In this document: in pieces, positions 2,259 through 20,577 of the stretch
Position numbering within the stretch: the stretch's first letter is position 1
Layout of the letters: every line of letters starts with the position of its first letter
Source of the DNA: a virus
Taxonomy: Duplodnaviria > Caudoviricetes
DNA length: 64,000 nucleotides
Virus record (IMG/VR): IMGVR_UViG_3300030055_000003
Reading direction: 5' to 3' (one strand)
Program-made: the position numbers and the translations under genes
Notes under the pieces: generated by a model
Databases searched by the model: none
What the model was told of the DNA's origin: nothing
The model's input: the letters and a program-made list of their open reading frames with translations, nothing else

Positions 2259-2366
2259 TTAATATCTCCTTTATTATTTTAATTTATTATCTATATAATT
2301 AAGTTAGTATATAATAATTAATAAATCATATACCAACTTAATATAAAATATTCAATTTAAAATGTC

Positions 2367-2813
2367 CTATAGCTCCTTTATCATTTCTTTTATAATAGTA
2401 AGACATTCCTCTTTACTTTCATGATCTTTATTATCAGCTTCTTCTAAGTATTCACTATAAACTTCTTCAAAATAATCAATATCGTTCTCTAAGTCAAAAT
2501 CTTCAGCTTCTATTTCATTATCATATAAGTAATATCTAAAGAAATATCTTGTTTCTTCCCATATTCCAAAAGCTCTATCAAACCATTGTTCTGCATACAT
2601 TCTTTCATCAGAACCATTAGAATGATGGTCTGTTAAATCAGCGGTAAAACTACCTAATAATTCAGAAGCATTGTTAAAACCTACCTTTAAGGCATGTAAT
2701 GTCAGCATTGAATATTGTTTGTCAGTCATTTTAACATTAACGCCTTTATCTCCTAATGTTTTTAAATCCTCATTTTCTTCTTTAATTCTTTCCGCATAAA
2801 AATCTTTCATCAC
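2367..2813 (-). CDS. hypothetical protein
   Basis: ORF track; co-oriented with neighbours. Confidence 0.75.
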   Translation of the reverse strand: MMKDFYAERIKEENEDLKTLGDKGVNVKMTDKQYSMLTLHALKVGFNNASELLGSFTADLTDHHSNGSDERMYAEQWFDRAFGIWEETRYFFRYYLYDNEIEAEDFDLENDIDYFEEVYSEYLEEADNKDHESKEECLTIIKEMIKEL

Positions 2814-2983
2814 TCTTCAATCCTTTCTAACTTACTTGTATACGCTTCTGTAGTATTCAATCTATCAATCCCAGTTTTAATTATTGCCACTTGGAAAGCT
2901 TTCAATACGCTTACTACTTTAGCATTGTGAAATTCTTTCCCATTCATATCTGTACCATTCACTTTATCTCCAACTTCAATCAT
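2810..2983 (-). CDS. small hypothetical protein (57 aa, not in ORF track)
   Basis: AAGGTGG RBS, MIEVGDKVNGTDMNGKEFHNAKVV..., stop overlaps next start. Confidence 0.65.
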   Translation of the reverse strand: MIEVGDKVNGTDMNGKEFHNAKVVSVLKAFQVAIIKTGIDRLNTTEAYTSKLERIEE

Positions 2984-3014
2984 CCCATAACCACCTTAAC
3001 TGTTTTTCTATATT

Positions 3015-3278
3015 TTAACATAATTTAAATGACATTTCTCTACTTTCTTTATTAATACTACAAAACATTAAGTTCCACATACAATCACAGACACTAGAAA
3101 GTTCTATTAATTCTTTTGATTTATATTTCTTTTTAAATTTAAATAATTCTGAAATATGGTCTTCCAACTCATACTTATTCACACCTTTTATATTCCCTTT
3201 ATCTACCTTTACATTAATTCCATTATCCATTGTTAAACTTACTATATTATTATTTATCATTTTTATTTCCTCTTTCAC
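3015..3278 (-). CDS. hypothetical protein
   Basis: ORF track. Confidence 0.6.
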   Translation of the reverse strand: MKEEIKMINNNIVSLTMDNGINVKVDKGNIKGVNKYELEDHISELFKFKKKYKSKELIELSSVCDCMWNLMFCSINKESREMSFKLC

Positions 3279-3341
3279 ATAATGTTAATTTGTTTTAATT
3301 TATTATGTATTATTAAAAGTATGAAAGAAGCATTGATAATT

Positions 3342-3533
3342 TTAAATTAATCCTAATTTATTTAAAATATTATCACGCATTTTGATAAGCCTACATTCAT
3401 TACAATCTTTTTTATAATCTTGCATTTCAGGTAATGAGCATCCGCTAATACAAGGATTAGAATTTAAAAATATATCCATGACTATTATTTCATCATTTGT
3501 TAATTCTAATTTTTTCAATTTATTCACCTCCAA
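3342..3533 (-). CDS. hypothetical Cys-rich protein
   Basis: ORF track; GGAGG RBS; C..C....C..C. Confidence 0.65.
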   Translation of the reverse strand: MEVNKLKKLELTNDEIIVMDIFLNSNPCISGCSLPEMQDYKKDCNECRLIKMRDNILNKLGLI

Positions 3534-3554
3534 GGTTCAAATAAAAGTAACATT

Positions 3555-3881
3555 TTAAACTAAATTATATTTAGTTTCTATATCATATTTATATATTGAT
3601 AAGCTATAATCATCAATTTTCATAATATTCTTTATTAATTGTTTATTTAAAGAAATATATACTAAAACAGTGTCACATCTATATGAATAACCAGTGCTAT
3701 AAAATACTTGGTCGTCTTCTAATAGTTTTTCTAATATTTCTGTATTGCAGTTTTTTATACATTCAATTACTCTTTCATCTTTATTTACATAATCAAAAGT
3801 TCTGCCAACAAAATTATTGTTTGGAATCCATTTAGAACAAAAATATAATTTTTCAATACATCTATCTATAATATCATTCAT
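3555..3881 (-). CDS. hypothetical protein
   Basis: ORF track; AGGTG RBS. Confidence 0.7.
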   Translation of the reverse strand: MNDIIDRCIEKLYFCSKWIPNNNFVGRTFDYVNKDERVIECIKNCNTEILEKLLEDDQVFYSTGYSYRCDTVLVYISLNKQLIKNIMKIDDYSLSIYKYDIETKYNLV

Positions 3882-3909
3882 TTATTCACCTACTCCAGTC
3901 CTTTTAAAT

Positions 3910-4182
3910 CTAAGAATTTATCAAGTTTTCAACATTTTTAAACATAACACATCCACAACTATTTAAATATATATGTTTTCTTTCGTCTAGTTCTTTTAAA
4001 AGGTATTGTGATTCTCTTTCAAAATTTTCTCTTGATTCATAATCAATACTATAACAAAGCATTCTTTCTATATAAAGATATCTATCTAGTAAATATTTGG
4101 TTGTTTGATTTTTTATTGATTTTTCTAAAACTTCATTTTCTTGTTTTTCTTTTCTTCTCTTTTTTATCCAAAACCAATCCAT
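3910..4182 (-). CDS. hypothetical protein
   Basis: ORF track; GGAGG RBS. Confidence 0.7.
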   Translation of the reverse strand: MDWFWIKKRRKEKQENEVLEKSIKNQTTKYLLDRYLYIERMLCYSIDYESRENFERESQYLLKELDERKHIYLNSCGCVMFKNVENLINS

Positions 4183-4230
4183 TTTTATACACCTCCATCA
4201 ACATAAAATCAGATTTTTATAGTAAATATA

Positions 4231-4995
4231 TTATACATCTATTTGAGATGTGTTTTCTATATGTATTGAATTTTTTCTAGTATATTTTTGTTTAGGTTTA
4301 TGTTCTTGTATATGTAGTTTATATTCTTCGTTTAACCATTTATATATCTTGTCCAATTTTTCTTCACTAAAGAATTCTTGTTTCTTATACCACTCCTCTA
4401 TATCAAATTGATGTTTAGAAGTATTGCATCTTTTACAGGATGGTACACAATTTCCTAAATCATCTGAACCATTACAATCTACATGCTCCTTATGTAATTG
4501 TTGATTATATATTTCTTTATGTTCAATCTCACTCATTCCACAATAAGCACAACTATTATCAAAATACTCTTTACAATCAACCCATTCTTTATTATTTATC
4601 TTATGTGCTTTATTGGAATATGTATTATTATATTCTTTTAATTTATCTTTATTATTATGTTGCCATTGTTTTTGATATCCAGTTTCTCTTTGTCTTTTTG
4701 AATTTTCTCGTAATGCCTTGCTTTTTATTTCAGAATGATCATATTTATATTGAGCAATTTTAACCTTTTCTAGGTTATCATTTCTCCATGCTCTTGACAT
4801 TAATTTATTACATTCTTTACAATACGGAAATAACCCATCTGAAGATGTTTTATGTTTATAAAAATATTCCCCATTGCATGGAAACCATTGTTCTTCATTT
4901 GGACGTAATATTTTATGCTTGTTACATAGTTTATATAGTTCTCCTTCTATTAATTTATGAGATTTTTCATAAATTAAACCAATTTTATTTTCTAT
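4231..4995 (-). CDS. HNH endonuclease; true start appears upstream of the annotated 4800 ATG
   Basis: CAYCG..HKEHVD..GSDDLGNCVPSCKRCNTSKH; frame stays open to 5016 and encodes LC..H...WFPCNGEYFYKHKTSSDGLFPYCKEC; RBS AGAAAGAAGG sits 8 nt before ATA at 4995. Confidence 0.75.
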   Translation of the reverse strand: MENKIGLIYEKSHKLIEGELYKLCNKHKILRPNEEQWFPCNGEYFYKHKTSSDGLFPYCKECNKLMSRAWRNDNLEKVKIAQYKYDHSEIKSKALRENSKRQRETGYQKQWQHNNKDKLKEYNNTYSNKAHKINNKEWVDCKEYFDNSCAYCGMSEIEHKEIYNQQLHKEHVDCNGSDDLGNCVPSCKRCNTSKHQFDIEEWYKKQEFFSEEKLDKIYKWLNEEYKLHIQEHKPKQKYTRKNSIHIENTSQIDV

Positions 4996-5050
4996 ACTAA
5001 AAACCTTCTTTCTTTTTTAAATTTATTTATAATTTATTTTTATAATTAAT

Positions 5051-5097
5051 ACTTAGACTTATATTCTAATCACCTCCTATTTAAATTAAGTCTAAGT
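5051..5097. terminator. inverted repeat, probable terminator
   Basis: ACTTAGACTT ... AAGTCTAAGT perfect 10-bp arms. Confidence 0.5.
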
Positions 5098-5104
5098 TAG
5101 CTTC

Positions 5105-5434
5105 CTATTTTACTTTCTCTATATCTTCAATTAATTTTTCTAAATCTTCTAGATACTCTAACTTTGTATATTCATCATTGATGATTAATTCTTTTAAATT
5201 TGTTGCTAATTTAAACTTTTTAGTTTCCATCAATAATTTTCTTAATTCAATATAAATATTATTAACTTTTTGAATATATAACTTTTGATTCTTTTCATCT
5301 GAAAAATTAAGTTCATAATTGCTTAATGTATACCAATTTGTAATTTCTTTTAACTTTTTACTTGCATTATCTAAATCTTTATACAAAGTTTCTTCTTTCT
5401 TTGCTATATATTTAGCTTTCTCCATTTTATTCAT
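5105..5434 (-). CDS. hypothetical protein
   Basis: ORF track; GGAGG RBS. Confidence 0.7.
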   Translation of the reverse strand: MNKMEKAKYIAKKEETLYKDLDNASKKLKEITNWYTLSNYELNFSDEKNQKLYIQKVNNIYIELRKLLMETKKFKLATNLKELIINDEYTKLEYLEDLEKLIEDIEKVK

Positions 5435-5688
5435 ACCTCCACATATTCATATTCACCAATTTTAAACCATACTATATTTTTATTATATTCTATACCTACT
5501 TGATTTTCACATTTATATGCAACTATAAAACTTTTTCCAATTAAATCATCAAATCCATCATCTTTAACAGATATACAATCTAATATTCTAACTTTTTCAA
5601 TTTTCATACTTTTAGGATCACAATGTGGTATATTTAAATCTTTTAATATTCTTTCCATAAAATTTTCTGATTTACTCATTAAAATCAC
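5431..5688 (-). CDS. hypothetical protein
   Basis: ORF track; AGGAG RBS. Confidence 0.7.
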   Translation of the reverse strand: MILMSKSENFMERILKDLNIPHCDPKSMKIEKVRILDCISVKDDGFDDLIGKSFIVAYKCENQVGIEYNKNIVWFKIGEYEYVEV

Positions 5689-5748
5689 TCCTTAATTATT
5701 ATAATATTATACCATTTTACTAAATCTTAGTCACTTTTGATAAAAGAT

Positions 5749-5949
5749 TTATTTTAAGCTTTCTTTAGTTATGTCATATACTTGCAATAATGCATATCCT
5801 CCAATATAAGTTATTATTAAAGCAATGATTAATATATCCATTGTAGAATAATAATTTTGTATATTATTAATTTCTAAGAAGAATGCAACTGTAAACATTG
5901 TTGTAATAGAAACATATAATTGTTTGATTAATTCTTTTAAGAATTTCAT
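5749..5949 (-). CDS. small membrane protein
   Basis: two hydrophobic stretches; AAGGAG RBS. Confidence 0.65.
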   Translation of the reverse strand: MKFLKELIKQLYVSITTMFTVAFFLEINNIQNYYSTMDILIIALIITYIGGYALLQVYDITKESLK

Positions 5950-5963
5950 ATGATTCTCCTTTC

Positions 5964-6887
5964 TTATAAATTGTTCAATGGATTACTCTTTACAGCTTCA
6001 CGACTTTGTTCATCATCTACATGAGTATAAATTTGGGTATTAGATACTGATGAATGACCAAGAATACTCTGAAGTTGTCTTATATCTACTTTTCCGTATT
6101 TATACATAAGTGTAGCACTTGTATGCCTTAATTTATGCACAGTATACTTACTAGAGTCATTTATTCCAGAATTTTGTATATATTCTTTTACTAATACTTC
6201 TATTCTTCCTTTTTTAATATTAAACAATCTTCCATCTAAAATATTGTAATCATCTCTTATATTTAAATAATCATTTAATACTTTTAAACAAGTTTCATTC
6301 ATGTATATAGTCCTCTCCTTGTTCCCCTTACCAATAACAGTTAATACATCACCTTTAATATTATCAACCTTGATACCCTCTAGTTCAGAAAGTCTCATGC
6401 CTGTTTGTAGGAATAATGTCACAATACAATAATCTCTAGTATAATTTTCATTATTCTTATTCATTGAAGTTAATAATTGTTTGCTTTCATTTAAAGATAG
6501 ATAGATTGGATTTCTCTTTTGCTTTTTAGGGACTATTAGACCATAAGCTGGATTTACTGTGATAAGTTTTTCTATGTTTTGTAGATATTCAAAATAAGAT
6601 TTCAAAGTGTAAGTTTTTCTTGTTCTTGCAGATGCTCCACAACTTTTTTCTTTGTTTTCTAAATACATCATAAAAGCATTTAAATCTTTTAGTTCAACCT
6701 TTTTAATAACCATGTTAGTTATATCTTTCTTATTCTTATGTATTTTTAAAAAATCAAATAGTAAATGTAAATCACTTCTATAAGATTTTAAAGTATCTGT
6801 AGTTAATCCTTTCATTGTTCTACAATAGTTTAAAAAGTTTTCAGCATTTTCTATCAACTTATCTTCTCTAGCTTTCATATCAATCAA
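5964..6887 (-). CDS. tyrosine recombinase/integrase (XerC/D-like), catalytically intact
   Basis: SAM-like N-terminus (GLTTDTLKSYRSDL); TGMRLSEL, GKGNKER, HKLRH, LGH, TQIY; own TTGATT-17-TATAAT promoter at ~6925-6960. Confidence 0.93.
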   Translation of the reverse strand: MIDMKAREDKLIENAENFLNYCRTMKGLTTDTLKSYRSDLHLLFDFLKIHKNKKDITNMVIKKVELKDLNAFMMYLENKEKSCGASARTRKTYTLKSYFEYLQNIEKLITVNPAYGLIVPKKQKRNPIYLSLNESKQLLTSMNKNNENYTRDYCIVTLFLQTGMRLSELEGIKVDNIKGDVLTVIGKGNKERTIYMNETCLKVLNDYLNIRDDYNILDGRLFNIKKGRIEVLVKEYIQNSGINDSSKYTVHKLRHTSATLMYKYGKVDIRQLQSILGHSSVSNTQIYTHVDDEQSREAVKSNPLNNL

Positions 6888-6995
6888 TCCTTTCTTTGTT
6901 CTATTAATTTGTTTTATCTTGTAATTCTATTATATATCTATTTTATGGAAAAATCAATAGTTTTATTACTGATTTTTCTAAAAATATACATTAAT

Positions 6996-7152
6996 TTATT
7001 TCTCTTTATTATATTCTTGGATATCTGCACAAAACACAATAGTTTTTGCATTTTCTAATCTATTTGAGTATAAAGACTTTAAACCTTCTTGAATGTCTTT
7101 AGGTAATTCTTCAATATTTATTTCAACCAAAAGGAACCGTTCTTTTTTTCAT
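6996..7152 (-). pseudogene. small ORF frameshifted in an A7 run just after ATG
   Basis: ATG-A7-GAACGG; removing one A gives a clean 51-aa ORF MKKERFLLVEINIEELP... with GGAGTG RBS. Confidence 0.55.
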
Positions 7153-7188
7153 ACAATCACTCCTTTAATTTATAATGAAATGATAGTT

Positions 7189-7527
7189 TTAATCAATCTC
7201 CTCAAAACATTCACCACATATTAATGTATTACACTTAGGACACATATAATCTCCATCATATTTTACTCCTGTAATTGGTTCTATACCTTCTCCAAAATAC
7301 TTAATAGTCGCATTATTTATATCATCAGCAGAACTAATCTGTTCACATTCTTCACATTTATAATACTTTATGTTTCTTCTTTTGAATGTTTGCATAACCA
7401 TTAAGTTGTCTTTATTTTCAAGTGTTGTTTCTAGCCATAAATCTAATTCTTCCTGTTTATCAAAAGTAATCCATAAATCATACCTATGTAATTCTTCTGT
7501 CTTTTTAAATACTACTATATCCTTCAT
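7189..7527 (-). CDS. hypothetical protein with zinc-ribbon
   Basis: CEEC ... CPKC...CGEC. Confidence 0.7.
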   Translation of the reverse strand: MKDIVVFKKTEELHRYDLWITFDKQEELDLWLETTLENKDNLMVMQTFKRRNIKYYKCEECEQISSADDINNATIKYFGEGIEPITGVKYDGDYMCPKCNTLICGECFEEID

Positions 7528-7591
7528 TTTTATTAGCTCCTTTTTATATATTTATTTTATTATATCCAACTAAAACAATGTATTTAACGAC

Positions 7592-7780
7592 TTATTTTTT
7601 AATAATTAAATAACCCCATATTGGAAATAAAATTATTGCAGATATCAAATACCATTTAAAATCAATTATATCTGTAAATTTTAGTAATGTCATGCCCCAA
7701 GAGAATGATAATATACAAAATAAAAATATTAATACTTTTTTAAAACTTTTATATATATGTTTAATGTTCATATTATTCAA
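7592..7780 (-). CDS. small two-TM membrane protein
   Basis: two hydrophobic helices. Confidence 0.65.
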   Translation of the reverse strand: MNNMNIKHIYKSFKKVLIFLFCILSFSWGMTLLKFTDIIDFKWYLISAIILFPIWGYLIIKK

Positions 7781-7983
7781 CCTCCATAAACTCTAATTAA
7801 ACAATCTTTTCTTGCTCTTAATGGTCTGCTAGTATTAATATCTATTACATCTATGTAGCCACCAAAATCTTCTTCTAAAGATTCAATTCTATATATATCA
7901 AATGAAATTGCATATTTTCTACCATCTTCACATTTTCTTAATCTTAAATTGTTACTATACACTACTATATCCCCTACATTCAT
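7777..7983 (-). CDS. hypothetical protein
   Basis: ORF track; GGAGG RBS. Confidence 0.7.
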   Translation of the reverse strand: MNVGDIVVYSNNLRLRKCEDGRKYAISFDIYRIESLEEDFGGYIDVIDINTSRPLRARKDCLIRVYGG

Positions 7984-8021
7984 TTTACTACCTCCACTTC
8001 TAATGAAATTATTAATTTATC

Positions 8022-8273
8022 CTAATCTTCCCATCTTACTGCAATTTTCGTCTCAACATATTGAACAAACTCTAACATTTTAAGACTTTCTATATCGTCA
8101 TTATCAAATTCCCAATCATCTTCTATTGTAACATTGTGATATTCATTATTGTATTTCCATTTTAATTCTTCTAACAACTTATTGTTGTTTTCAGCATAAG
8201 CATATCCATCTGCCACAAATTCTCCATATTCTCCCAACTTAACAAACCATCTGAATAATCCCATATATTTCAC
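8022..8273 (-). CDS. hypothetical protein
   Basis: ORF track. Confidence 0.7.
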   Translation of the reverse strand: MKYMGLFRWFVKLGEYGEFVADGYAYAENNNKLLEELKWKYNNEYHNVTIEDDWEFDNDDIESLKMLEFVQYVETKIAVRWED

Positions 8274-8276
8274 TCC

Positions 8277-8519
8277 TTATTTATCAGCGTATAGTAAATT
8301 AAATAGCATTATATCTTCATCTTTAACAATACTATATATTTGTTCTGCAAGTGCTTTTACTTTAATATAACATTCATCACATAGAAATAATGAACCTCCG
8401 TCAACAGTCATAATAAATTTAAAATCAGTTTTATCATAAACATCACTAATTCTCAAACATTCACTATCTATATAATTACTATCTTTATTGCAATTTTTAC
8501 ATTTAATTGTTTCGCTCAT
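8277..8519 (-). CDS. hypothetical zinc-binding protein
   Basis: CKNC ... LCDEC. Confidence 0.7.
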   Translation of the reverse strand: MSETIKCKNCNKDSNYIDSECLRISDVYDKTDFKFIMTVDGGSLFLCDECYIKVKALAEQIYSIVKDEDIMLFNLLYADK

Positions 8520-8531
8520 TATTATGCTCCT

Positions 8532-8765
8532 CTATTTACTTATATTATTTAACTTAAAACTTTTTACAGAGTCTAATGGATATTGATTTAGGACTTGATT
8601 AATAAAATCTTCATAAGTCCATCCTTCAGCTTTAATTGCTTCCTTATTATCTATTATTTTATACCATATTCCATATTGATATTTAAATTCAATAAATTCT
8701 TCATTATCACATATAAATATTTCAACTCTTTTTAGTGAATCATCTATCTTTTCTTTAATTTTCAT
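8532..8765 (-). CDS. hypothetical protein
   Basis: ORF track; AAAGGAG RBS. Confidence 0.7.
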   Translation of the reverse strand: MKIKEKIDDSLKRVEIFICDNEEFIEFKYQYGIWYKIIDNKEAIKAEGWTYEDFINQVLNQYPLDSVKSFKLNNISK

Positions 8766-8802
8766 TTATTTCACTCCTTTTAAAATTATGATTTTAAATA
8801 AA

Positions 8803-8976
8803 TTAATTTAATTTCTCCAAGTATTCAATACATTTCTTTTTTGTTCCTTTAAATATTTCTGTGCCATTTTCATGCTTATCATTTACAATTCCGTAAGAAA
8901 ATCCATCGCTTTTATCTATTAAAGTTACACCTACTGCATAAAAACTATTCCCACTTTTGACCTTTATTACTTTCAT
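8803..8976 (-). CDS. small hypothetical protein (57 aa, not in ORF track)
   Basis: AGGTG RBS; MKVIKVKSGNSFYAVGVTLIDKSDGFSYGIV... Confidence 0.6.
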   Translation of the reverse strand: MKVIKVKSGNSFYAVGVTLIDKSDGFSYGIVNDKHENGTEIFKGTKKKCIEYLEKLN

Positions 8977-9008
8977 TATATCACCTACTTCATTATTCTA
9001 GAATTTAA

Positions 9009-9362
9009 TTATATCATATTCTTTTTAATTAATTCTACATCGTTCAATCCATATCTTTCAAAATATTTATACGGATATGCTCTAAACTTACTAAATAAAC
9101 AATTTAATAACTCATTATAATTTTCATATATTGTTAATTTATCTTTATGTACACCAACTGTTAATGTATGCTTTTGTTCTTCTAAATTCTTATCTAAAAA
9201 TAAAATATCCAATATTAAAAATCCTCCATTATTAAAACCTTTAATATAAATTGCCTCCATTATATCATGGTTATAATAATTCATCCAATCCATTATATTA
9301 TATTCAATAGTTTGTTCTATTTTTATCAATTCTGAAATTTCTTTAAATATTTCATATTTCAT
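9009..9362 (-). CDS. hypothetical protein
   Basis: ORF track; AAAGGAG RBS. Confidence 0.7.
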   Translation of the reverse strand: MKYEIFKEISELIKIEQTIEYNIMDWMNYYNHDIMEAIYIKGFNNGGFLILDILFLDKNLEEQKHTLTVGVHKDKLTIYENYNELLNCLFSKFRAYPYKYFERYGLNDVELIKKNMI

Positions 9363-9404
9363 ATTTATATTTCACTCCTTTTAAATTCAATATTTTAACT
9401 TAAA

Positions 9405-9743
9405 TTACCAATTATGTTTTCTTTCTCTGTTTTCATTCTGTTCTTCAAATGTATTTAAAATATCATAATAGTCTTTATTAAATATTCTATCTATGTCATG
9501 TTTACTATTAATTCTAACAAAACAATCAGGTCTATAATGATATAGATAACCATTATAAGTTAAAAACATACCCTTTTCTGTCATTTTTATAGTTTCTTCA
9601 AAACAATCTTTGCATATATAAATTCCTTCACTGCTATGACAAAATCCATCCCATTGATTAATTCTAAATGAATCTATATCTTCTTTATTATGTAGCTTAC
9701 CACATATTGAGCATTTTTTAGTTTCATCTTCCATAACTTTCAA
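9405..9743 (-). CDS. hypothetical zinc-binding protein
   Basis: CSICG ... ICKDC. Confidence 0.7.
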   Translation of the reverse strand: MKVMEDETKKCSICGKLHNKEDIDSFRINQWDGFCHSSEGIYICKDCFEETIKMTEKGMFLTYNGYLYHYRPDCFVRINSKHDIDRIFNKDYYDILNTFEEQNENRERKHNW

Positions 9744-9909
9744 CTCTCTTTCTATATTAATTTATTTCTAACTTTATGTATCAATTCAGCTATAAATGTG
9801 AATAGCTTCTTTAGTTACTGCCGAATGGCTTAGAACTTATCTGATAATATAATTATAGCATACTTTACCAACAAATCAATACTTTTTAAATAAATTAATA
9901 GAATTATTT

Positions 9910-10227: not shown

Positions 10228-10229
10228 TT

Positions 10230-10700: not shown

Positions 10701-10878
10701 TTATCTTTCCTTTCCCATTTTCTTAACTTTTAAAATATAATAGAACGTAAGAATTTTGAGAAGAAATATCTTACATTAATATTATACTATATAATTCTCA
10801 AATTATTCCATTTATTTTTATCACTTAAAATACCGATTTGATTGTAATATGAAAAAGAGCATAGATTATTCTACACTC

Positions 10879-11034
10879 TTAATTTTCTCCTAATACTCTA
10901 CCAAAAACATCATCAATTTTCTTTTTAGCTATATTTTCAATTGTATTTTTGATTTCTTGATAATCTTCTTCATTCATGTCTTTATAATTTTCTTTAATTA
11001 ATTGTATAAGTCTATCTGCTCTCATATAATTCAT
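10879..11034 (-). CDS. small hypothetical protein (51 aa, not in ORF track)
   Basis: AAGGAGG RBS; MNYMRADRLIQLIKENY... Confidence 0.6.
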   Translation of the reverse strand: MNYMRADRLIQLIKENYKDMNEEDYQEIKNTIENIAKKKIDDVFGRVLGEN

Positions 11035-11101
11035 CTTAACACCTCCTTACTCTTAATGAAATAACTCTTTTAAATAATTCACCACAACTTAGAATTGCGA
11101 A

Positions 11102-11248
11102 TTAATCAACTCTTAACTTTTTAATTTCTTCTGAATTTAATTCTTTCTTTAAATCTCTTACTAATTCCTTAAGATGTTCACTATCTCTAGCATCTTTACA
11201 TTTCATTGAATAAGTCATTAATAACCCCGATACATCTAAATTATTCAT
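11102..11248 (-). CDS. small hypothetical protein (48 aa, not in ORF track)
   Basis: AAGGAAG RBS; MNNLDVSGLLMTYSMKCKDARD... Confidence 0.55.
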   Translation of the reverse strand: MNNLDVSGLLMTYSMKCKDARDSEHLKELVRDLKKELNSEEIKKLRVD

Positions 11249-11283
11249 ATTATCAACTTCCTTTCTTCGCACTTTTTACATTA

Positions 11284-11508
11284 TTATTGTTTTTCGTTAT
11301 CATTCGCAAATATATACCAAGTATTTTTAATTTCTCCAGTCCTAAATAAGTGATAATTGTCCTCACAAAGTTTCCATTCTGTGCGTTCCTCAAAAGAATA
11401 GTAATAATTATTTTGTATTTTCTTTATCTTTATATCAGACAAAGAACTTTGAATAATATAACCAGCTTCTAAATATTGAACAGCTTTAACAAAATTTTCT
11501 CCATTCAT
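11284..11508 (-). CDS. hypothetical protein
   Basis: ORF track. Confidence 0.65.
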   Translation of the reverse strand: MNGENFVKAVQYLEAGYIIQSSLSDIKIKKIQNNYYYSFEERTEWKLCEDNYHLFRTGEIKNTWYIFANDNEKQ

Positions 11509-11578
11509 ATTATACCAACTTTCTCAAATAACGTATTTTTATAATTGACAATCACTATTAATAAAACTCTTGATTTAC

Positions 11579-12145
11579 TTACTTTTGTGTTTTCAAATTT
11601 TCTAAAACTTTTAATTCTTTTTGACATGCTGATATCTTAGATTCTATATAATCTTTTCTGCTATTAATTGCTTCAATCAATTCAGTCTCATATTCTTCTT
11701 TGGTTGCAATCTCATATTCTTTTCCATCGTCTAATATATATTCAACTTTTAAACTGCAATTATTCTTTATTTTATATCCATCTTCATACTCATAATCTAA
11801 CCACAATCCACCGTAAAATTCTTTTGTTCTATTTAGTTTTAATATCTCGTTTTTATCTTTTATATATTCAGGTAACTCATCTAAAAATTTATACTCATCA
11901 TCTTCTAACCAAATTTCTTTGCCATTACATTCAATACAAATAATATCCTCATAATTTTTATAGTTACTTCTATATTTAATATTAAACGTTTTTCCTATTA
12001 GCTCTTTATATTGACTATTTATAATCGAATCTTTTTCTAATATTTTCGCTTTTCTAAATTTACATGACTTACTATCTTTAATCCATTCACCTTCAGCTAC
12101 TAATATTTTTATAAAATCTTTTTCACACTTTATCATTTTTATCAC
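11579..12145 (-). CDS. hypothetical protein
   Basis: ORF track; AAGGAG RBS. Confidence 0.7.
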   Translation of the reverse strand: MIKMIKCEKDFIKILVAEGEWIKDSKSCKFRKAKILEKDSIINSQYKELIGKTFNIKYRSNYKNYEDIICIECNGKEIWLEDDEYKFLDELPEYIKDKNEILKLNRTKEFYGGLWLDYEYEDGYKIKNNCSLKVEYILDDGKEYEIATKEEYETELIEAINSRKDYIESKISACQKELKVLENLKTQK

Positions 12146-12210
12146 TCCTTAATATTAACTATATTATACTTTCATTTACATATTATAACCAAGTAAAAGA
12201 ACTAATTTAC

Positions 12211-12519
12211 CTAAAACATAATAACTATTGTCTTTTCCCATTTTAATGAATTTATAATATCCTCTACTTGTTTATCTATTTCAATATCTTTTAGTCCACT
12301 ACCTTTTTTACTATAAAAAACATCATATTCAACTTGTCCTTTATCATAATATTTATCATCATAATAAGCAATATCTTTAATCATTACATCACTAGGCTCA
12401 TAATGTTCTATATCGTCATCATCCATAGTTGGCATAATTTTTATTGGTAAATTTGGATTTTCATTTATTACTTTTCTAATTTTATGTGATATATTCATAT
12501 CTATTAACACCATCCTCAT
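12211..12519 (-). CDS. hypothetical protein
   Basis: ORF track; NPNLPIKIM pattern. Confidence 0.7.
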   Translation of the reverse strand: MRMVLIDMNISHKIRKVINENPNLPIKIMPTMDDDDIEHYEPSDVMIKDIAYYDDKYYDKGQVEYDVFYSKKGSGLKDIEIDKQVEDIINSLKWEKTIVIMF

Positions 12520-12626
12520 AAATATTATTTTAACATTAATTTCCTTAACTTGATATGTATTTCCTTATTAATAATATATCATATTCCAGTTATAATTTTA
12601 AGCTTTCTTCTATTAATTTATTTATC

Positions 12627-12794
12627 TTATTCTAAGACTAGCACTTCCATATTCTCTTTAATCCAGCTTTCACTAGTTCCACGCTCTATGAGTTCATTAA
12701 TCTTTGTATTAACATCACCTACAAACTTTAAAGTTGCATTTATATTATAATTATCACAAACTTTCATTATCTGTTCAAAGAAATTATATTTCAT
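12627..12794 (-). CDS. small hypothetical protein (55 aa, not in ORF track)
   Basis: AGGAGG RBS; MKYNFFEQIMKVCDNYNINATLKFVG... Confidence 0.6.
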   Translation of the reverse strand: MKYNFFEQIMKVCDNYNINATLKFVGDVNTKINELIERGTSESWIKENMEVLVLE

Positions 12795-12806
12795 TTTCAA
12801 ATCCTC

Positions 12807-13226
12807 CTAACTTAATTGATTAACAAAAATATTCTCACCTAAATCAAACCAATTCATTTTATTTTCCCAGAAGCCTACAGCATCACAATGACTATAACAC
12901 CATATGATTTGGCTTTTATTCATTAGATAATTAATAATATCTTTACACACATTGTAACCACGCTTTAAGCTTGTAATAGCATCTAAATAGATTCCATTAC
13001 ATATTGTATCTTTGACATTATTTTGTTTATGTACATCTATGTATAACTCTAATTCCTCATCATCTAACTTACTGTACATTGCTATGGAAACTACTTCATT
13101 AGATTCATTAAGAACCTTTATTATATGCTTATTCTTTAAATCTTTCTCGGTTTCTCCAAACAGGAATAATTCATCTTTATACTTTTCTATAATTTGTTTA
13201 TTGATAGATTCTTCTACTATTTCCAT
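12807..13226 (-). CDS. putative GNAT-fold acetyltransferase
   Basis: VVSIAMY..IYLDAITSLKRGYNVCKDII...CYSHCDAVGFWENKMNW resembles GNAT motifs A/B. Confidence 0.45.
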   Translation of the reverse strand: MEIVEESINKQIIEKYKDELFLFGETEKDLKNKHIIKVLNESNEVVSIAMYSKLDDEELELYIDVHKQNNVKDTICNGIYLDAITSLKRGYNVCKDIINYLMNKSQIIWCYSHCDAVGFWENKMNWFDLGENIFVNQLS

Positions 13227-13239
13227 TACCTACATCCCC

Positions 13240-13605
13240 CTATTCTAATATGTCAATCTCTTTAAGTGTTAAATGTTTATACACATCTAAAGTTATATCA
13301 TCTTCATCAATATAGTTACAATATAATTGTGTTATTTCCTCACCATTAGAATTTTTATATCTAACAACTGGATTATTAATATAAATATATTTCTGTCCAA
13401 AATGATTCCATTCAAAATCTTTTAATACTTCTTTTTGAAATTGTTTATTTGATAATAATTTATAATCATCACTCTCTATAATTTCACTTATATATTTTTG
13501 TTCTATCTCATTTCTTTTATCGAGTATGATTTGTTCATTTATTGAAAATATTTCTGATATTTGTTCATATTGTACTTCACCTATTTTTAATTTATATCCT
13601 TTCAT
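13240..13605 (-). CDS. hypothetical protein
   Basis: ORF track; AGGAGG RBS. Confidence 0.7.
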   Translation of the reverse strand: MKGYKLKIGEVQYEQISEIFSINEQIILDKRNEIEQKYISEIIESDDYKLLSNKQFQKEVLKDFEWNHFGQKYIYINNPVVRYKNSNGEEITQLYCNYIDEDDITLDVYKHLTLKEIDILE

Positions 13606-13617
13606 TGTTACTCCTCC

Positions 13618-13854
13618 TTAAATCTCTTGATATCCTTGTTTCTCTAATTTATATTTGTATTTATCATATCTATAATTAGACATTTGCCCTATAATTTTTT
13701 CTTTAGTTACATTACCCTGCTTATCTAATATGATTTTATTTTCTTCATAGTATTGTGCATTATCTAATATCCAATTATTTGGATTATCAACTAATTTAAA
13801 TTCTCTTATAATGTCCGTTTGTTTACCTTCTAATTTTAGCCTTAACATTTCCAT
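13618..13854 (-). CDS. hypothetical protein
   Basis: ORF track; GGAGG RBS. Confidence 0.7.
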   Translation of the reverse strand: MEMLRLKLEGKQTDIIREFKLVDNPNNWILDNAQYYEENKIILDKQGNVTKEKIIGQMSNYRYDKYKYKLEKQGYQEI

Positions 13855-13897
13855 TCCTCCACATCTATTAAAATTTGATTTTTATAAGAATATTAAT

Positions 13898-14197
13898 TTA
13901 TTTCTTAATGCAATCTTCATAAGTTTCTAATCCGCTAACCATTCTTCCTTTATTAATTTCATGCATCTTTTTAAGCTTTTCTACATCTACTTTTTCTTTA
14001 GGATATTTAATATACCATCCTTGTTTAGCCCATTCATATGTTCCTAATTCTTCTATAAAATTAGTATGAGTTAGATTTGCTCCATCTTCATAATATAGAT
14101 TAAAATTATACTCATGCATACTTTCTCCTCGACCAAATGATTGATGAGATACAAAGCTTCCTTCTCTTGCTGATTGACATGCTTCTGATAAATTCAT
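13898..14197 (-). CDS. hypothetical protein
   Basis: ORF track; AGGAG RBS. Confidence 0.7.
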   Translation of the reverse strand: MNLSEACQSAREGSFVSHQSFGRGESMHEYNFNLYYEDGANLTHTNFIEELGTYEWAKQGWYIKYPKEKVDVEKLKKMHEINKGRMVSGLETYEDCIKK

Positions 14198-14198
14198 T

Positions 14199-14432
14199 TT
14201 ATTTCACTCCTATTATTTTATTTATTATTCTTTGTAATTCTAAATAATCTTTATTATATTCATCTTTGTCATAAATTACACTTCTATTACATTCATCAGT
14301 AAAATCTTTATCCCATCTTACTAAACTATCAACATCATCTTTTATTTGTTCTAATCGGTTAATAACTTTTGTCCTATATTCATTTCTTTTAAAATGACTT
14401 GATATAGTAGGAAAATAAAACATCTTTAACAC
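14199..14432 (-). CDS. hypothetical protein
   Basis: ORF track. Confidence 0.65.
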   Translation of the reverse strand: MLKMFYFPTISSHFKRNEYRTKVINRLEQIKDDVDSLVRWDKDFTDECNRSVIYDKDEYNKDYLELQRIINKIIGVK

Positions 14433-14483
14433 CCACTTTCTTTATTTAAATATTACTATTTATTACCAAGTAAATTAATACCT

Positions 14484-15095
14484 TTAATAGGTTTCCTTTA
14501 TTAATTTTCTTTTATATGCCTTATATTTTCTTTGATATATTTTTCTATATGTCTTTTTACACTCCGTCTCTCCGCATGTTTTTTGCTCCGCTCCTTTCTT
14601 GATAAATAGCCTTCTACACACTGCACAAGCTTGAATAAGCAATACCCTGTTAGCTTCTTTATATTTTTCTTTCTTTTCAGACATAACATTACGTTGTATT
14701 TTTTTAGACTTTCCTCTCTTTTGATAATATCTAATCTTATTTTGAGCCTTTTCAGCTTCTTTATTCTTTTCATAGTAAATTTTACGTCTATTACTAATCT
14801 TTTTCTTATTTTCTTTTCTGTAGGTGTCTGATAGATTTTTCATGTGTATTTTTTCGCATGATTCTTTTCCACATAGAATTTGTCTAGTTCTATATGTTTC
14901 AAATTCTTCGCCACATATAATACAATATTTTTCTTGAAGTGTAATTTTTTTATATTTTAACATATATTTTTTAGCCCTTTGATTATCTTTTACTTTTTTG
15001 GCTATATTTCTGCAATCTTCACTACATGTTTTTATATTTCCTTTAGCATCAAATTCCTTACTACAAATCATACATATTTTAATCATTCTATTCAC
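14484..15095 (-). CDS. basic protein with three zinc-ribbon repeats
   Basis: CMICSKEF..KTCSEDC / CIICGEEF..ILCGKESC / CAVCRRLF..KTCGETEC. Confidence 0.7.
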   Translation of the reverse strand: MNRMIKICMICSKEFDAKGNIKTCSEDCRNIAKKVKDNQRAKKYMLKYKKITLQEKYCIICGEEFETYRTRQILCGKESCEKIHMKNLSDTYRKENKKKISNRRKIYYEKNKEAEKAQNKIRYYQKRGKSKKIQRNVMSEKKEKYKEANRVLLIQACAVCRRLFIKKGAEQKTCGETECKKTYRKIYQRKYKAYKRKLIKETY

Positions 15096-15550
15096 TCCAT
15101 TTTTCTTCCTATACTTCTATGTTTGATTGTAACACTTTTTTGTATTTATTCCACTATTAAATAAACTTTTAATATTTCTTCTTTAATTTCCTTTTCAAAA
15201 GTCTTGGTTAAATATTTTAAATTTTCAATTGCTTCAATTCCGTCTTCTTTAGGATCATATTTACATATTTTATATTCTGGTTTAAATCTCTCCATAATTA
15301 TTATATATTTCATTTTAATACACCTTTACTTTCATGTTTTAATTTATTTATATTCTGTTAAAGTTCCTGTTTTAAAGTAACTCATCCTTTAATATCTTCC
15401 CTATATATTCTTATCATAGTTCCATCATCTTTTAAAACACTATATGTGCCATCTAAATTGATTTTAATTATCTCAACTGTTAATTCTATATTATTACCTA
15501 TAATTACTATTATCTCGCCTATCTGATACATTAAAATCAATCCTTTCTAT

Positions 15551-15739
15551 TTAAGCCACATCTATGAAATAGCTTTTCTTCTCTGTTTTTTTCGCTTTAT
15601 AATTGTTTTTTCTTTTCTTATGTAATATTTTATTAACTAATATACAACTTACTGCACCTATAAATATAGATAATACTAAAACTATTCCACAATATTCTAA
15701 TAATCCAATCCAATTAGATAATGGATAATTCATAAACAT
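15551..15739 (-). CDS. small membrane protein
   Basis: single TM helix followed by basic tail. Confidence 0.6.
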   Translation of the reverse strand: MFMNYPLSNWIGLLEYCGIVLVLSIFIGAVSCILVNKILHKKRKNNYKAKKTEKKSYFIDVA

Positions 15740-15762
15740 AACCTCTCACTCCTTATATAAAT

Positions 15763-15966
15763 TTATTCTACTACATATACATTCTTATCCTTATTGTTTA
15801 AAATCTCCTGTAATGAACCAAATACAACTGTTTTATCATATATCTCTGTCAACTCTTCTATTAAACTAATATCTTCATCTGACAATCTGTTTTTATGAAC
15901 CATAATTATATCTTCTTCTCTATTTTGCATAGCTGAATGAACCATTCTTACATAATCATTTATCAT
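15763..15966 (-). CDS. hypothetical protein
   Basis: ORF track. Confidence 0.65.
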   Translation of the reverse strand: MINDYVRMVHSAMQNREEDIIMVHKNRLSDEDISLIEELTEIYDKTVVFGSLQEILNNKDKNVYVVE

Positions 15967-16154
15967 TCTTATTAATACTTCCTTTTTTAAATATTTTTAT
16001 CTCTATTCATTATTATTGCAATTTTTGCAAGATTTTATAACTGGATTAATACTGATAATTTCTAATTGTTTAAAAGGACATTTATTACAGTTTTTATTGT
16101 TTAACTTAACAATTTCATTCATAATTAAAACCTCCTCTTTCCATTAATTTGTTT

Positions 16155-16403
16155 TTATTTTTCTAATAATTCTTTTAAGTCTTCAATATCATAAAACTTA
16201 TCTTCTTGAATATCATAATAATATTTATATCTAGTTTCTAATTGTTTTATGATTTCTTTTATTTTTAATTTATCAGCAACTATTTTATATGTATAACCTA
16301 ACTCTTTAATACCTTCATGATTTTGTTTTTCTATGAATACTTTTGTAAATGTTTCTGGTTGAGCATCTGTTAAAATACCATAGTAATTTTCAAAATTTTT
16401 CAT
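16155..16403 (-). CDS. hypothetical protein
   Basis: ORF track; strong upstream promoter TTGCAA-17-TATACT. Confidence 0.7.
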   Translation of the reverse strand: MKNFENYYGILTDAQPETFTKVFIEKQNHEGIKELGYTYKIVADKLKIKEIIKQLETRYKYYYDIQEDKFYDIEDLKELLEK

Positions 16404-16619
16404 TTAAATCAACTCCTTATATCTATTAATTTATTTAAACTATGCCTATCTCTTATCTATGTACTAAGTATAGCATAGTATTTTTACTATTGCAACAAAT
16501 TAATAGAATTAAACCTAATTATTTTTTAATTTTATATATAAGAAAAAGAACTGCATTTTACTACAATTCCATTAACTATTTTACATTTATTACCAAGTAA
16601 AATTTAGATTTTATGGTAA

Positions 16620-16931
16620 TTATACTATATCCCACGACTCTACTCTTTGACCATTTTCTACTAAATCATTATACGAGAATAATATTTCTGGCTTTCTTTT
16701 ACCTTTACTTCTTATAGATGCAAGTATATTACGTCTACTATATATTTTTAAATTTTCATTACAAATTATAATTGTATCATATGATTCAAATATATGAGAA
16801 TCTAAAGTAAGCATAACATCGTCATCATATAGACTATTTTGAGTATAATAAACAAAATAACCATTACCTTGTAGACTTTCAATAAACTCTTCATTGAGAA
16901 ATTCTATATTATTTTCATAAAACTTTAACAT
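16620..16931 (-). CDS. hypothetical protein
   Basis: ORF track. Confidence 0.65.
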   Translation of the reverse strand: MLKFYENNIEFLNEEFIESLQGNGYFVYYTQNSLYDDDVMLTLDSHIFESYDTIIICNENLKIYSRRNILASIRSKGKRKPEILFSYNDLVENGQRVESWDIV

Positions 16932-17056
16932 TTTTTATCACCATCCTAAATTGTTACTTTATAATAATATAAAAGTTGTATTTATTTCTATCTAATTATA
17001 AATAATTTTTGACTATTTTTCTATGTATTTCTTAATAATATATTTTTATATACAAT

Positions 17057-17093
17057 TTTGAAGTTATCTACATAATATAAATAACTTCAAAAT
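17057..17093. terminator. hairpin terminator
   Basis: TTTTGAAGTTAT ... ATAACTTCAAAA. Confidence 0.65.
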
Positions 17094-17119
17094 ATATTAA
17101 ATATACGACCATTTTATAT

Positions 17120-17332
17120 TTATTTATCTTGAACAGCTACTATATAACCTTCTGCTACTTGATATATTGAGTAAAATATATCTTCTTCGCTATCTTCTAT
17201 ACTATCTATTAATGTATCAAATTTTGTTACTGATTTTACAATTTCTATTTCTCCAAAATCTACAGTTTTTATTGTTTCGCCTTTTATTTCTTCACTCATA
17301 TCCATTACCATCATGTTTTTCATACCAATCAA
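17120..17332 (-). CDS. small acidic hypothetical protein
   Basis: ORF track. Confidence 0.6.
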   Translation of the reverse strand: MIGMKNMMVMDMSEEIKGETIKTVDFGEIEIVKSVTKFDTLIDSIEDSEEDIFYSIYQVAEGYIVAVQDK

Positions 17333-17439
17333 CCTCTCTTTGTTTTAATTTGTTTATGTATTTCTATGTTCTTATTATATCAAATTGACAGAGAATTACA
17401 AGTGCTTTTTAAAAATATTTTATTTTAATTTATTATATA

Positions 17440-18477
17440 TCAATCAAATTTATATTGTTTCAATATATCTACAATAATATCACCTGTCCAACCATTACCA
17501 ATAGCTTTAATTCTTGCTTTATCACTTAAACCATCAGCTTTAGTATAACCGTCTGGCAATGTTTGTAGCCTTTCTAATTCTACTATGGTAAATTTTCTAA
17601 TTATACCATCATAGTAAACACATATGTCACAACTACAATCTAAAGTATTAGATTTTTCTTTTATAACTCTTCCTCGTCTTGTTTTACTTGTTGGAAACTG
17701 AAGATTGACTCCATCTCCATTATTAGCAACTATGTATCCTTGTTTTGTAGCTTGACTTATTCTTACCTCGCCATCTACAACGTCAATTAGGTTATATGCT
17801 TTTTCACTTATACTAGGATCTATTTTGAGTCCTTTATAATCTATGTAATTGCTTGTATCAACATTTTCTAATATGTCTAATAATTTAATTTGTTTATCTT
17901 CTGGTGGTTCTATGTATGTACTTGTCCAATATAATCGAGGTCTATTTTGTGCTGAAAGGAGTTTGCTATTAATCGCAATAGGTTCACAATTCATATAATT
18001 ACTGATAGTATCTCTTGTCGCTTTTTTCATTTCAACATTTTCTAGTAAAAATTGTACATTAGGATTATTATTATCTCTTATCCAGTTTAATACTCTTAAA
18101 TATTCAAAGAATAATTTACTTTCAGTACCTTCTAATCCTTTATTATCTCCTGCTCTTGAATTATTTTGACAAGGACTACCTCCAATCAATAAATCAATTC
18201 TAGGTAATTTTTTTAATTCAGTTTCGTCTAATAAAGTAACATTACCTAATCTAATAATATCATCAAAATTCTTTTTACTAATTTTCATTGCATTCTCATC
18301 AATTTCACTTGCGAAATACTTATATACCTCAATTCCTGCTCTTTTTAGTACTAATCTTCCCGTACTATGTCCATCAAATAAACTTACTACATTTATATTC
18401 ATTTTATCTCTCCTTGCTTTTATTAATTTATTATGATTTGTAAAACCACTATATATAGTATGTCCAGTATAAGGCAA
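17440..18477 (-). CDS. DNA (cytosine-5)-methyltransferase, solitary
   Basis: motif I VSLFDGHSTG, motif IV IGGSPCQ, VI FLLENV, VIII QNRPRLYW, IX-X ERLQTLPDGY..AIGNGW; start probably MNINVVSLF. Confidence 0.92.
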   Translation of the reverse strand: MPYTGHTIYSGFTNHNKLIKARRDKMNINVVSLFDGHSTGRLVLKRAGIEVYKYFASEIDENAMKISKKNFDDIIRLGNVTLLDETELKKLPRIDLLIGGSPCQNNSRAGDNKGLEGTESKLFFEYLRVLNWIRDNNNPNVQFLLENVEMKKATRDTISNYMNCEPIAINSKLLSAQNRPRLYWTSTYIEPPEDKQIKLLDILENVDTSNYIDYKGLKIDPSISEKAYNLIDVVDGEVRISQATKQGYIVANNGDGVNLQFPTSKTRRGRVIKEKSNTLDCSCDICVYYDGIIRKFTIVELERLQTLPDGYTKADGLSDKARIKAIGNGWTGDIIVDILKQYKFD

Positions 18478-18571
18478 ACCACAATATATAGATTTAAGAC
18501 CTTTTAAAATATAAGTTTTAATTGAATTAATTTGTCATTATAATAGAAGAAGGTTAATTAACCTTCTTCTA

Positions 18572-18781
18572 TTAATCCTTATCTTTTAATATTGCATTTT
18601 TTAAATTTTCATACGCATAAATCATGCCTTTATATTGTTCAATTGACAATGTTCTAATAAATATAGACATTCCATAATTGTCTCCAGATTCATTTTTCTT
18701 CTTTTCTATATCTCTTTCGTGTTCTTCTATTGATTTGTCTATACGGAATAAAATATCTTCTATAGTCATAAAATAACACAC
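18572..18781 (-). CDS. hypothetical protein
   Basis: ORF track. Confidence 0.65.
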   Translation of the reverse strand: MCYFMTIEDILFRIDKSIEEHERDIEKKKNESGDNYGMSIFIRTLSIEQYKGMIYAYENLKNAILKDKD

Positions 18782-18802
18782 CTTTCAAATTAATATTAAA
18801 TA

Positions 18803-19534: not shown

Positions 19535-19550
19535 ATTAATACCTCATTGC

Positions 19551-20555: not shown

Positions 20556-20577
20556 TCTTCATAATATCCTTTCAGTT

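Follow-up and report, generated by a model that had tools for sequence, protein, structure and literature searches.

Intergenic dyads with junction-specific 6-nt centres as apparent joints of module exchange in SPbeta-like phages

The origin of phage mosaicism is an old question, in which rare illegitimate joins filtered by selection are set against recombination directed at conserved linkers, and clean examples of such linkers are scarce. Among described systems, the pdif modules of plasmids are swapped between relatives at sites with identical or near-identical 6-bp spacers, with crossovers falling within the site (PMC13141974). In the family of Bacillus phage SPbeta, the repeated SPBRE and Phi3TRE boxes are recognised by a repressor with a tyrosine-recombinase fold (PMC10516654; bioRxiv 10.1101/2025.11.27.690993); this MrpR/SroF repressor binds its long, asymmetric, phage-specific box as a monomer (bioRxiv 10.1101/2025.11.27.690993). 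Here we examine a different repeated element, the dyad TAAAA-N6-TTTTA, in a 64,000-nt stretch of DNA from an uncultured peat phage (IMG/VR record IMGVR_UViG_3300030055_000003; the whole stretch is hereafter the window, to which all coordinates refer unless another genome is named) and in its relatives. The initial annotation of this DNA had listed 19 such dyads between 2344 and 18520, at junctions of short genes around a tyrosine recombinase gene (5964-6887), and had read them as a system for acquiring or shuffling gene cassettes. Our comparisons indicate that the dyads are preferred joints of module exchange, carrying junction-specific centres and receiving crossovers within the site.

All 19 of the listed 16-mers were found in the window, and the preference for a 6-nt spacer, which the initial annotation had put forward for checking, is pronounced: between 2300 and 18560 the exact N6 form occurs 7 times, compared to 0.6 +/- 0.8 in dinucleotide shuffles, with each of the other spacings from N0 to N12 contributing 0-2 exact copies. 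Across the whole window, exact N6 copies number 14 (1-4 at the other spacings from N3 to N9), all 14 of them intergenic and none coding in a sequence of which 27% is intergenic; dyads at other spacings divide evenly between coding and intergenic DNA. The one-mismatch class is weakly enriched (21 versus 14.7 between 2300 and 18560; 38 intergenic and 22 coding copies in the window), and the 12 imperfect copies on the list thus need support from outside the window. The exact copies and those backed by orthology stand as real elements, while some of the 12 imperfect ones may be chance matches. The junction geometry is as had been described, most dyads having the upstream stop codon at a distance of -3 to 13 nt and the next start 8-53 nt away, and many adjoin a ribosome-binding site (RBS) with no -10 element after them. 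The supposed restriction to 2344-18520 does not hold, as further exact copies are found at 25551-25566, 27055-27070, 27567-27582, 29175-29190, 36786-36801, 38262-38277, and 59919-59934 (the last within a block of plus-strand genes), nor is the array centred on the recombinase; the element occurs genome-wide and family-wide. We also considered the dyad as a sigma-A promoter (-35/-10), as an extended -10, or as an UP element beside a TTGG-type -35, and rejected these options by eye, the spacings being inconsistent among copies.

The window phage comes from peat metagenomes, its whole sequence being contained in 24 peat DNA runs (no RNA run is among those listed), and has a GC content of ~24%. 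Its genes form a long series of short open reading frames, with the minus strand predominating and few recognisable families; those recognised include HNH endonucleases, a C5 cytosine methylase, HicA, Rha/antirepressor/Bro-N proteins, a helicase, an FtsK-like ATPase, and one tyrosine recombinase. Searches with the helicase and methylase led to related IMG/VR contigs. YonO, a single-chain RNA polymerase that serves as a marker of SPbeta-like phages, has clear homologues in one relative (G001) and in a more distant, complete genome (G004); the window phage is related to SPbeta and its relatives are YonO-encoding SPbeta-like phages. The array had no megablast match in the phage collection. The SPbeta early region is likewise a series of short, co-oriented genes of unassigned function with HNH and antirepressor genes interspersed, and the "cassette-like" gene layout is thus the normal early/accessory region of SPbeta-like phages.

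The dyad itself extends across this family. The related peat contigs show the same excess at N6 only, and SPbeta (35% GC) carries 34 exact N6 dyads, compared to 0-3 at each of the other spacings from N2 to N10. Exact N6 dyads number 30 in phi3T, 31 in Goe14, 43 in SPbetaL6, and 36 in SPbetaL3, with a reversed control pattern giving 1-3; SPP1, which shares its host with SPbeta, has a single copy for all spacings summed. The SPbeta dyads lie between early-operon genes, with the upstream TAA stop codon often supplying bases 1-3 of the left arm, and stand 10-25 nt before the next RBS, as in the window. The dyads are thus real, specific to the 6-nt spacing, intergenic, and conserved family-wide. 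We found no mention of them in papers on MrpR (PMC10516654) and YonO (PMC5467207), in an SPbeta review (PMC8270828), in a preprint on SPbeta relatives, or in the preprint on the SroF-DNA structure (bioRxiv 10.1101/2025.11.27.690993), a survey that did not extend to the 1999 SPbeta genome paper.

What sets these dyads apart is the behaviour of their centres relative to the DNA around them. Two relatives, G002 and G001, are collinear with the window yet highly mosaic, with short blocks of 66-88% identity lying between stretches of unrelated DNA. Centres shared by the window and G002 nevertheless form a collinear chain of 16 members (permuted mean 6.3, maximum 10), and all 9 of the 9 centres shared with G001 are collinear (permuted maximum 6). 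Within this peat trio, sensitive blastn extends homology past the 16-mer by only 0-2 nt in most orthologous pairs. For the dyads at 10826, 11562, 12194, 13869, and 36786, no tblastx match to G002 lies within 700 nt on either side, and the same is true of 4204, 9382, and 13869 relative to G001. Where homology is one-sided, it halts at the dyad: compared to G001, it extends for 306 and 2 nt on the two sides of 11562 and for 42 and 0 nt on those of 5741. Dyads diverge at ~4% of positions, compared to 12-34% in the best-conserved neighbouring blocks. Distances between successive shared dyads differ up to 12-fold, the slot from 16598 to 27567 measuring 10969 nt in the window and 929 nt in G002; slot contents have thus been replaced, not merely diverged. 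The check proposed with the initial annotation thus has a positive outcome: breakpoints of gene gain, loss, and replacement between relatives do fall on the dyads, both in the peat trio and, as shown below, in the Bacillus SPbeta family.

For 11 of the 19 listed dyads, the same 6-nt centre is found in the same order in G001 and/or G002. Of the exact copies (centres given for the plus strand), 3542-3557 (GTAACA) recurs at G002 59412 and G001 44763, 4204-4219 (TCAGAT) as an identical 16-mer between unrelated flanks at G002 60651 and G001 45527, and 5741-5756 (GATTTA) in identical form at G002 61700, its G001 counterpart being at 46317, where the one-sided homology stops at the dyad. The 16-mer at 13869-13884 (TTTGAT) is identical at G002 68159 and G001 53725, although the 700 nt to each side lack homology by DNA comparison or tblastx, and 16598-16613 (TTTAGA) shares its centre with G002 71265. 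The remaining six each have one mismatch: 7176-7191 (TGATAG; same centre at G001 47393), 7571-7586 (CAATGT; G002 63446), 9382-9397 (TCAATA; G002 64249 and G001 48277, with flanks lacking homology), 10826-10841 (TACCGA; same centre in a perfect copy at G002 64862, and at G001 50181 with one-sided homology), 11562-11577 (CTCTTG; same centre in a perfect G002 copy, and at G001 51266), and 12194-12209 (GAACTA; identical at G002 66814 with both flanks unrelated, with a G001 counterpart at 51874). The copy at 15359 has a same-centre counterpart in G002, though within a homologous block. Beyond the listed range, 27567 (TAAGTT), 36786 (GAGTTG; flanks unrelated), and 38262 (GGTGGT) are identical at G002 72194, 82695, and 83849, respectively, and 29175 (CTTATG) shares its centre with G002 76257. 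In the stretches compared, no same-centre copy in G001 or G002 was found for 2344, 3905, 8004, 8781, 11057, 14471, or 18505. Two of these are exact, namely 8781-8796 (TTATGA), which adjoins an RBS and a second element described below (the AT box), and 18505-18520, which lies upstream of the C5 methylase gene and has no collinear orthologue; the others (2344-2359, 3905, 8004, 11057, and 14471) are one-mismatch copies that stand unverified.

The Bacillus phages allow the same question to be put quantitatively. When SPbeta 80-94.5 kb is set against four relatives, a dyad is found within 12 nt of 16 of the 35 distinct homology-block ends (1.2 at random). Since phage breakpoints favour gene boundaries anyway, junctions with and without a dyad were compared directly: 8 of 9 dyad-bearing junctions are used as breakpoints, versus 7 of 22 dyad-free ones (Fisher P=0.006). 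Genome-wide, SPbeta has 208 distinct block ends, of which 24 are no more than 5 nt away from one of the 34 exact dyads (random mean 1.4, maximum 5) and 17 no more than 2 nt, with 18 of the 34 dyads forming a block end in at least one of the four comparisons. The dyads are strong breakpoint hot spots, though not the sole breakpoints.

Arm differences locate the exchange more finely. We considered orthologous dyads with the same centre, at most one mismatch, and homology on exactly one side (56 distinct pairs in the Bacillus set); a pooled arm/flank test allowing up to two mismatches was discarded, as chance pairs dominate it. In the Bacillus set, 12 arm differences fall on the non-homologous side and 3 on the homologous side (P=0.018), with 2 and 0, respectively, in the peat set. 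Each arm is thus inherited with the flank on its own side, which places crossovers inside the dyad and rules out that it travels as a unit with one neighbouring gene. By this comparative evidence, the dyads share with Xer/dif-type sites a crossover inside the site between partners with matching centres.

The architecture of the site points in a similar direction. When flanks are symmetrised, Bacillus copies have T at -6 in 82% of cases, C or T at -5, T at -4 in 72%, and never G or C at -1; peat copies have another outer preference, their "TTGGT" being the outer arm read on the opposite strand. With preferences extending beyond the five inner bases, the unit is roughly 11-6-11, the layout of dif and pdif sites, i.e., two ~11-bp arms about a 6-bp centre, in which the inner 5 nt of each arm are invariant and the outer arms weakly conserved. 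The inner arms form a perfect inverted repeat and the symmetrised flanks give one consensus; the dyad lacks the distinct XerC and XerD half-sites that confer polarity. Such symmetry is compatible with single-recombinase Xer systems (XerA, XerH, XerS) and incompatible with classical XerC/XerD sites. In the 8 genomes, no exact dyad has the same centre as another of its genome, whichever the orientation, and same-centre pairs flank no gene; this avoidance, together with the lack of palindromic centres, runs in the expected direction and is not statistically significant. Each genome thus carries addresses that are all different, with no sign of circle insertion.

From these data, we favour a model, at a probability of roughly 0.55, in which the dyads are dif-like joints that partition the early and accessory parts of SPbeta-like genomes into gene slots, open to exchange by site-specific recombination of the dif/pdif type. 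Each joint would comprise the constant inner arms TAAAA and TTTTA, weaker outer arms, and a 6-nt centre found once per genome and common to relatives at the corresponding rank of their gene order. When one cell contains related phages, a crossover within a centre-matched joint would swap the DNA on either side, and two such crossovers would replace the contents of a slot while leaving gene order intact. As all centres in a genome differ, joints of the same genome would not recombine with one another, and deletions and inversions would be avoided. Catalysis would be by a tyrosine recombinase that requires a centre match, as at dif, lox, and pdif, and the symmetric arms suggest a homodimer of a single XerA/XerH-like enzyme, for which the 5964-6887 product and the host Xer system are candidates. 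Heterospecific lox sites in cassette exchange follow the same centre-matching logic. At pdif sites, too, crossovers require spacers that are identical or nearly so (PMC13141974). A more specific proposal, which we hold tentatively and at slightly less than even odds, is that SPbeta-like phages practise a natural form of recombinase-mediated cassette exchange, in which 30-40 ordered heterospecific dif-like sites would use their 6-nt centres as addresses by which one phage or host tyrosine recombinase could exchange the accessory genes of co-infecting relatives one slot at a time, leaving gene order unscrambled and its own genome undeleted.

Candidates for the enzyme were considered next. The recombinase gene at 5964-6887 is intact, as had been noted; its 307-aa product (Pfam Phage_integrase, 1e-31) aligns over its full length with XerA (8e-29 in a PDB search) and XerD (3e-26), with IntI4 matching at only 1e-9, and the catalytic Arg, Lys, His-x-x-Arg, His, and Tyr are all aligned in the XerA/XerD comparison. 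The gene occupies a slot bounded by dyads 5741 and 7176, and in G002 and G001 the corresponding slot contains an orthologue; with a third orthologue in a further relative, G003, identities are 36-50%. Similarity to SPbeta YopP, YomM, and YopR is only remote, with YopR lacking the first catalytic Arg, as published. Candidates for action at the dyads are thus the phage enzyme in the peat group and the host Xer system (CodV/RipX in B. subtilis), and there may be no such enzyme at all.

Several observations weigh against our model. (i) No enzyme has been linked to the dyads: the recombinase is only 36-50% identical among phages with identical dyads, a recombinase of the window type was not found in phi3T or in the complete genome G004, both of which bear dyads, and the G001 orthologue (G001:C1:46328-47239) has an in-frame TAA and may be inactive while the G001 dyads are intact. 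On the SPbeta side, YopP and YomM apparently have Lys at the position of the second catalytic Arg, albeit in a low-identity alignment, and a PDB search gave no match for YopP and only weak Cre matches for YomM. (ii) Strong conservation is limited to 5 bases per arm, a short stretch by the standard of recombinase arms. (iii) Crossovers within 16 bp of identity would look alike if they arose from short-homology recombination. (iv) Approximately 85% of SPbeta mosaic block ends are not at dyads. (v) In laboratory hybrids of phi3Ts and SPbeta, nearly all crossovers lie in long homology (bioRxiv 10.1101/2020.05.06.055103); having formed there, these hybrids cannot resolve whether dyads are used. The suggestion that the 5964-6887 enzyme drives the system is accordingly unsupported, and what survives of the proposed gene-shuffling system is shuffling at the dyads, without integron-like mechanics and without this driver.

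The foremost competing explanation, which we consider unlikely though deserving of attention, is that the dyad is primarily the binding site of a dimeric protein, be it a regulator, a "stoperator"-like roadblock, or an architectural protein, and only secondarily, as the sole conserved sequence between rapidly changing genes, a Botstein-type linker for short-homology exchange, with strand exchange carried out by a phage annealing protein of the Sak4/YorG type or by RecA, as proposed for the PeSLs of T4. SPbeta does encode a Sak4-like annealing protein; however, 16 bp is well under the homology needed for efficient recombination by RecA or annealing proteins. Helix-turn-helix dimers typically bind palindromes such as 5-N6-5, whose half-sites are spaced by one turn of the helix, dyads adjoin a repressor box in both phage groups (SPBRE in PaimR, the aimR promoter of SPbeta, and the AT box in the window), and no recombinase is universal among dyad-bearing phages. 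Moreover, PeSLs show that regulatory motifs are able to mediate shuffling (PMC2839356). Yet a protein reading only the arms would leave unexplained why 6-nt centres remain identical while the neighbouring genes are replaced or saturated, and for MrpR, ChAP-seq peaks are reported only at SPBRE sites and not at the ~24 dyads that lack SPBRE (PMC10516654).

Other possibilities carry far less weight. The position of the dyad between stop codon and RBS, with TAA often beginning the left arm, and its co-orientation with operons might suggest punctuation of polycistronic early transcripts, i.e., a hairpin or protein-binding site for RNA processing, stability, or translational coupling; we regard this as very improbable, given that predicted hairpins at the dyads are negligible (0 to -3.4 kcal/mol), the arms are conserved by sequence and not through covariation, and dyads also occur ahead of promoters, after terminators, and between divergent genes. 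Nor would an RNA element account for conserved junction-specific centres or for breakpoints at dyad edges. An integron-like arrangement, in which every gene would be a mobile cassette that has an attC-like dyad and enters as a circle through the recombinase, seems to us marginally less credible still. The setting invites that idea, with a tyrosine recombinase inside an array of short, co-oriented, unrelated genes and the stop codon at the site. However, the dyad stays where the genes on both sides differ, marking it as a backbone element and not a cassette-borne attC; same-centre duplicates are absent from the 8 genomes; sites of 16-28 bp with negligible folding are unlike attC; and the recombinase is nearest XerA/XerD. 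This part of the initial annotation is thus not borne out. Finally, matches picked by eye from AT-rich intergenic DNA could in principle arise by chance in a window of this base composition, where the one-mismatch class is near background. For the exact and orthology-backed copies this is refuted, and we give it practically no credence: the exact N6 form is ~10-fold over shuffles with no other spacing raised, SPbeta repeats the pattern at a higher GC content (34 versus 0-3), and centres are kept in collinear order.

A second repeated element of the window bears on the question of regulators. An asymmetric AT box, AAAYAAATTAATAGAA, has 55 copies within 2 mismatches, compared to 5.4 expected (maximum 12); a AATAAATTA-like motif forms its core. 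Examples are found at 6899-6914(-), 9888-9903(+), 12608-12623(-), 27543-27558(+), 36688-36703(-), 46483-46498(-), 46578-46593(-), 58577-58592(+), and 58674-58689(+). The box lies either ~5 nt upstream of a TTGACA-type -35, in either orientation, or directly against an RBS, and SPBRE, as derived here from MrpR-bound SPbeta promoters, occupies the same two positions. Sharing these positions together with the asymmetry of MrpR/SroF-type boxes, the AT box, and not the dyad, is the likely MrpR-type operator, i.e., a candidate operator for an MrpR/SroF-type repressor of the window phage. Dyad and AT box are frequently paired in the window, with varying spacing and order. At 36665-36800 (minus strand), for instance, a TG-preceded sigma-A-type promoter (TTGAAA-17 nt-TAATAT) stands between two inverted AT boxes, with a dyad just upstream and the second box adjoining the RBS; a similar box/promoter/box/RBS layout is seen at 46480-46600 and 58570-58700. 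The two kinds of element are neighbours in SPbeta too. At its aimR promoter (record position 76171-76218; contained in the segment SPbeta 50001-100000, L006), a dyad is followed after 8 nt by SPBRE and, 4 nt further, by the -35 TTGACT, and at yosX (129297) an SPBRE-like box directly precedes dyad and RBS.

Some further features of the window were noted. The slot between dyads 16598 and 27567 (16598-27582) is 11 kb long and contains the C5 methylase and proteins with HicA and Rha domains, its G002 counterpart being 0.9 kb; the C5 methylase alone is common to the contigs L007-L009, as an isolated block of ~80% DNA identity. The segments 1284-1684 and 45678-46081, 44 kb apart, are ~73% identical and lie within the genes 1290-2258 and 45684-46466, which are paralogues with a weak zinc-ribbon/CapR-like N-terminus. 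Two free-standing HNH endonuclease genes are found at 4231-4800 and 43797-44759.

Ultimately, a 16-bp dyad with a junction-specific centre marks module edges at nucleotide resolution, in uncultured peat phages as well as in SPbeta. If our model is correct, this address system would be a physical form of the "linker" sequences postulated by the modular theory of phage evolution. Should a site-specific enzyme be involved, the logic of dif modules would extend from plasmids to large temperate phages, and the fast turnover of anti-defence and accessory genes under retained synteny would be explained. The dyads would also serve as practical landmarks for annotating and comparing SPbeta-like genomes and, as SPbeta is genetically tractable, the question they raise is directly testable in Bacillus subtilis.

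Set beside known systems, the dyads share features with several. Integrons likewise combine a tyrosine recombinase (IntI) with short co-oriented genes and sites at gene ends (attC/attI), but attC sites are cassette-borne, folding, imperfect palindromes of ~60-140 bp, whereas the dyads are units of 16-28 bp that persist when both neighbours differ. Circle insertion in integrons leaves a site at each cassette end, a duplication not seen with the dyads, and the window recombinase is Xer-like rather than IntI-like. The SPBRE/Phi3TRE elements bound by MrpR (YopR) and SroF resemble the dyads as repeated intergenic elements of the same phage family (PMC10516654), often located beside a dyad. They are, however, long (15-26 bp), asymmetric, phage-specific, bound by a monomer, and present at about ten per genome, whereas the dyad is symmetric, is 3-4 times as numerous, keeps the same arms in Bacillus and peat phages alike, and occurs in phages whose repressor boxes differ.

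The PeSL cassettes of T4-type phages are one of the two closest systems, in that repeated motifs stand at the junctions of small accessory genes in hyperplastic regions and, like the dyads, mark breakpoints of insertion, deletion, and replacement between related phages (PMC2839356, PMC4122927). PeSLs are longer promoter-plus-terminator units (a sigma-70 early promoter and a stem-loop terminator) whose near-identical intragenomic copies undergo homologous recombination and give mini-circles, while the dyads are 16 bp, have no stable stem or promoter/terminator features, carry unique centres, and give no sign of intragenomic exchange. The other is that of the pdif/dif modules of Acinetobacter plasmids, where XerC/XerD sites with a 6-bp centre between ~11-bp arms likewise bound accessory modules (PMC13141974, PMC6449649). 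There, the sites belong to small plasmids and the enzyme is known, whereas the dyads belong to large temperate Firmicutes phages, with 30-43 sites per genome and an enzyme that is at present a candidate only. Whereas pdif sites have distinct XerC and XerD half-sites in alternating orientation (C and D modules), and their centres recur within a plasmid so that inversions and excisions occur, the dyads have symmetric inner arms and unique centres whose rank order is conserved from phage to phage.

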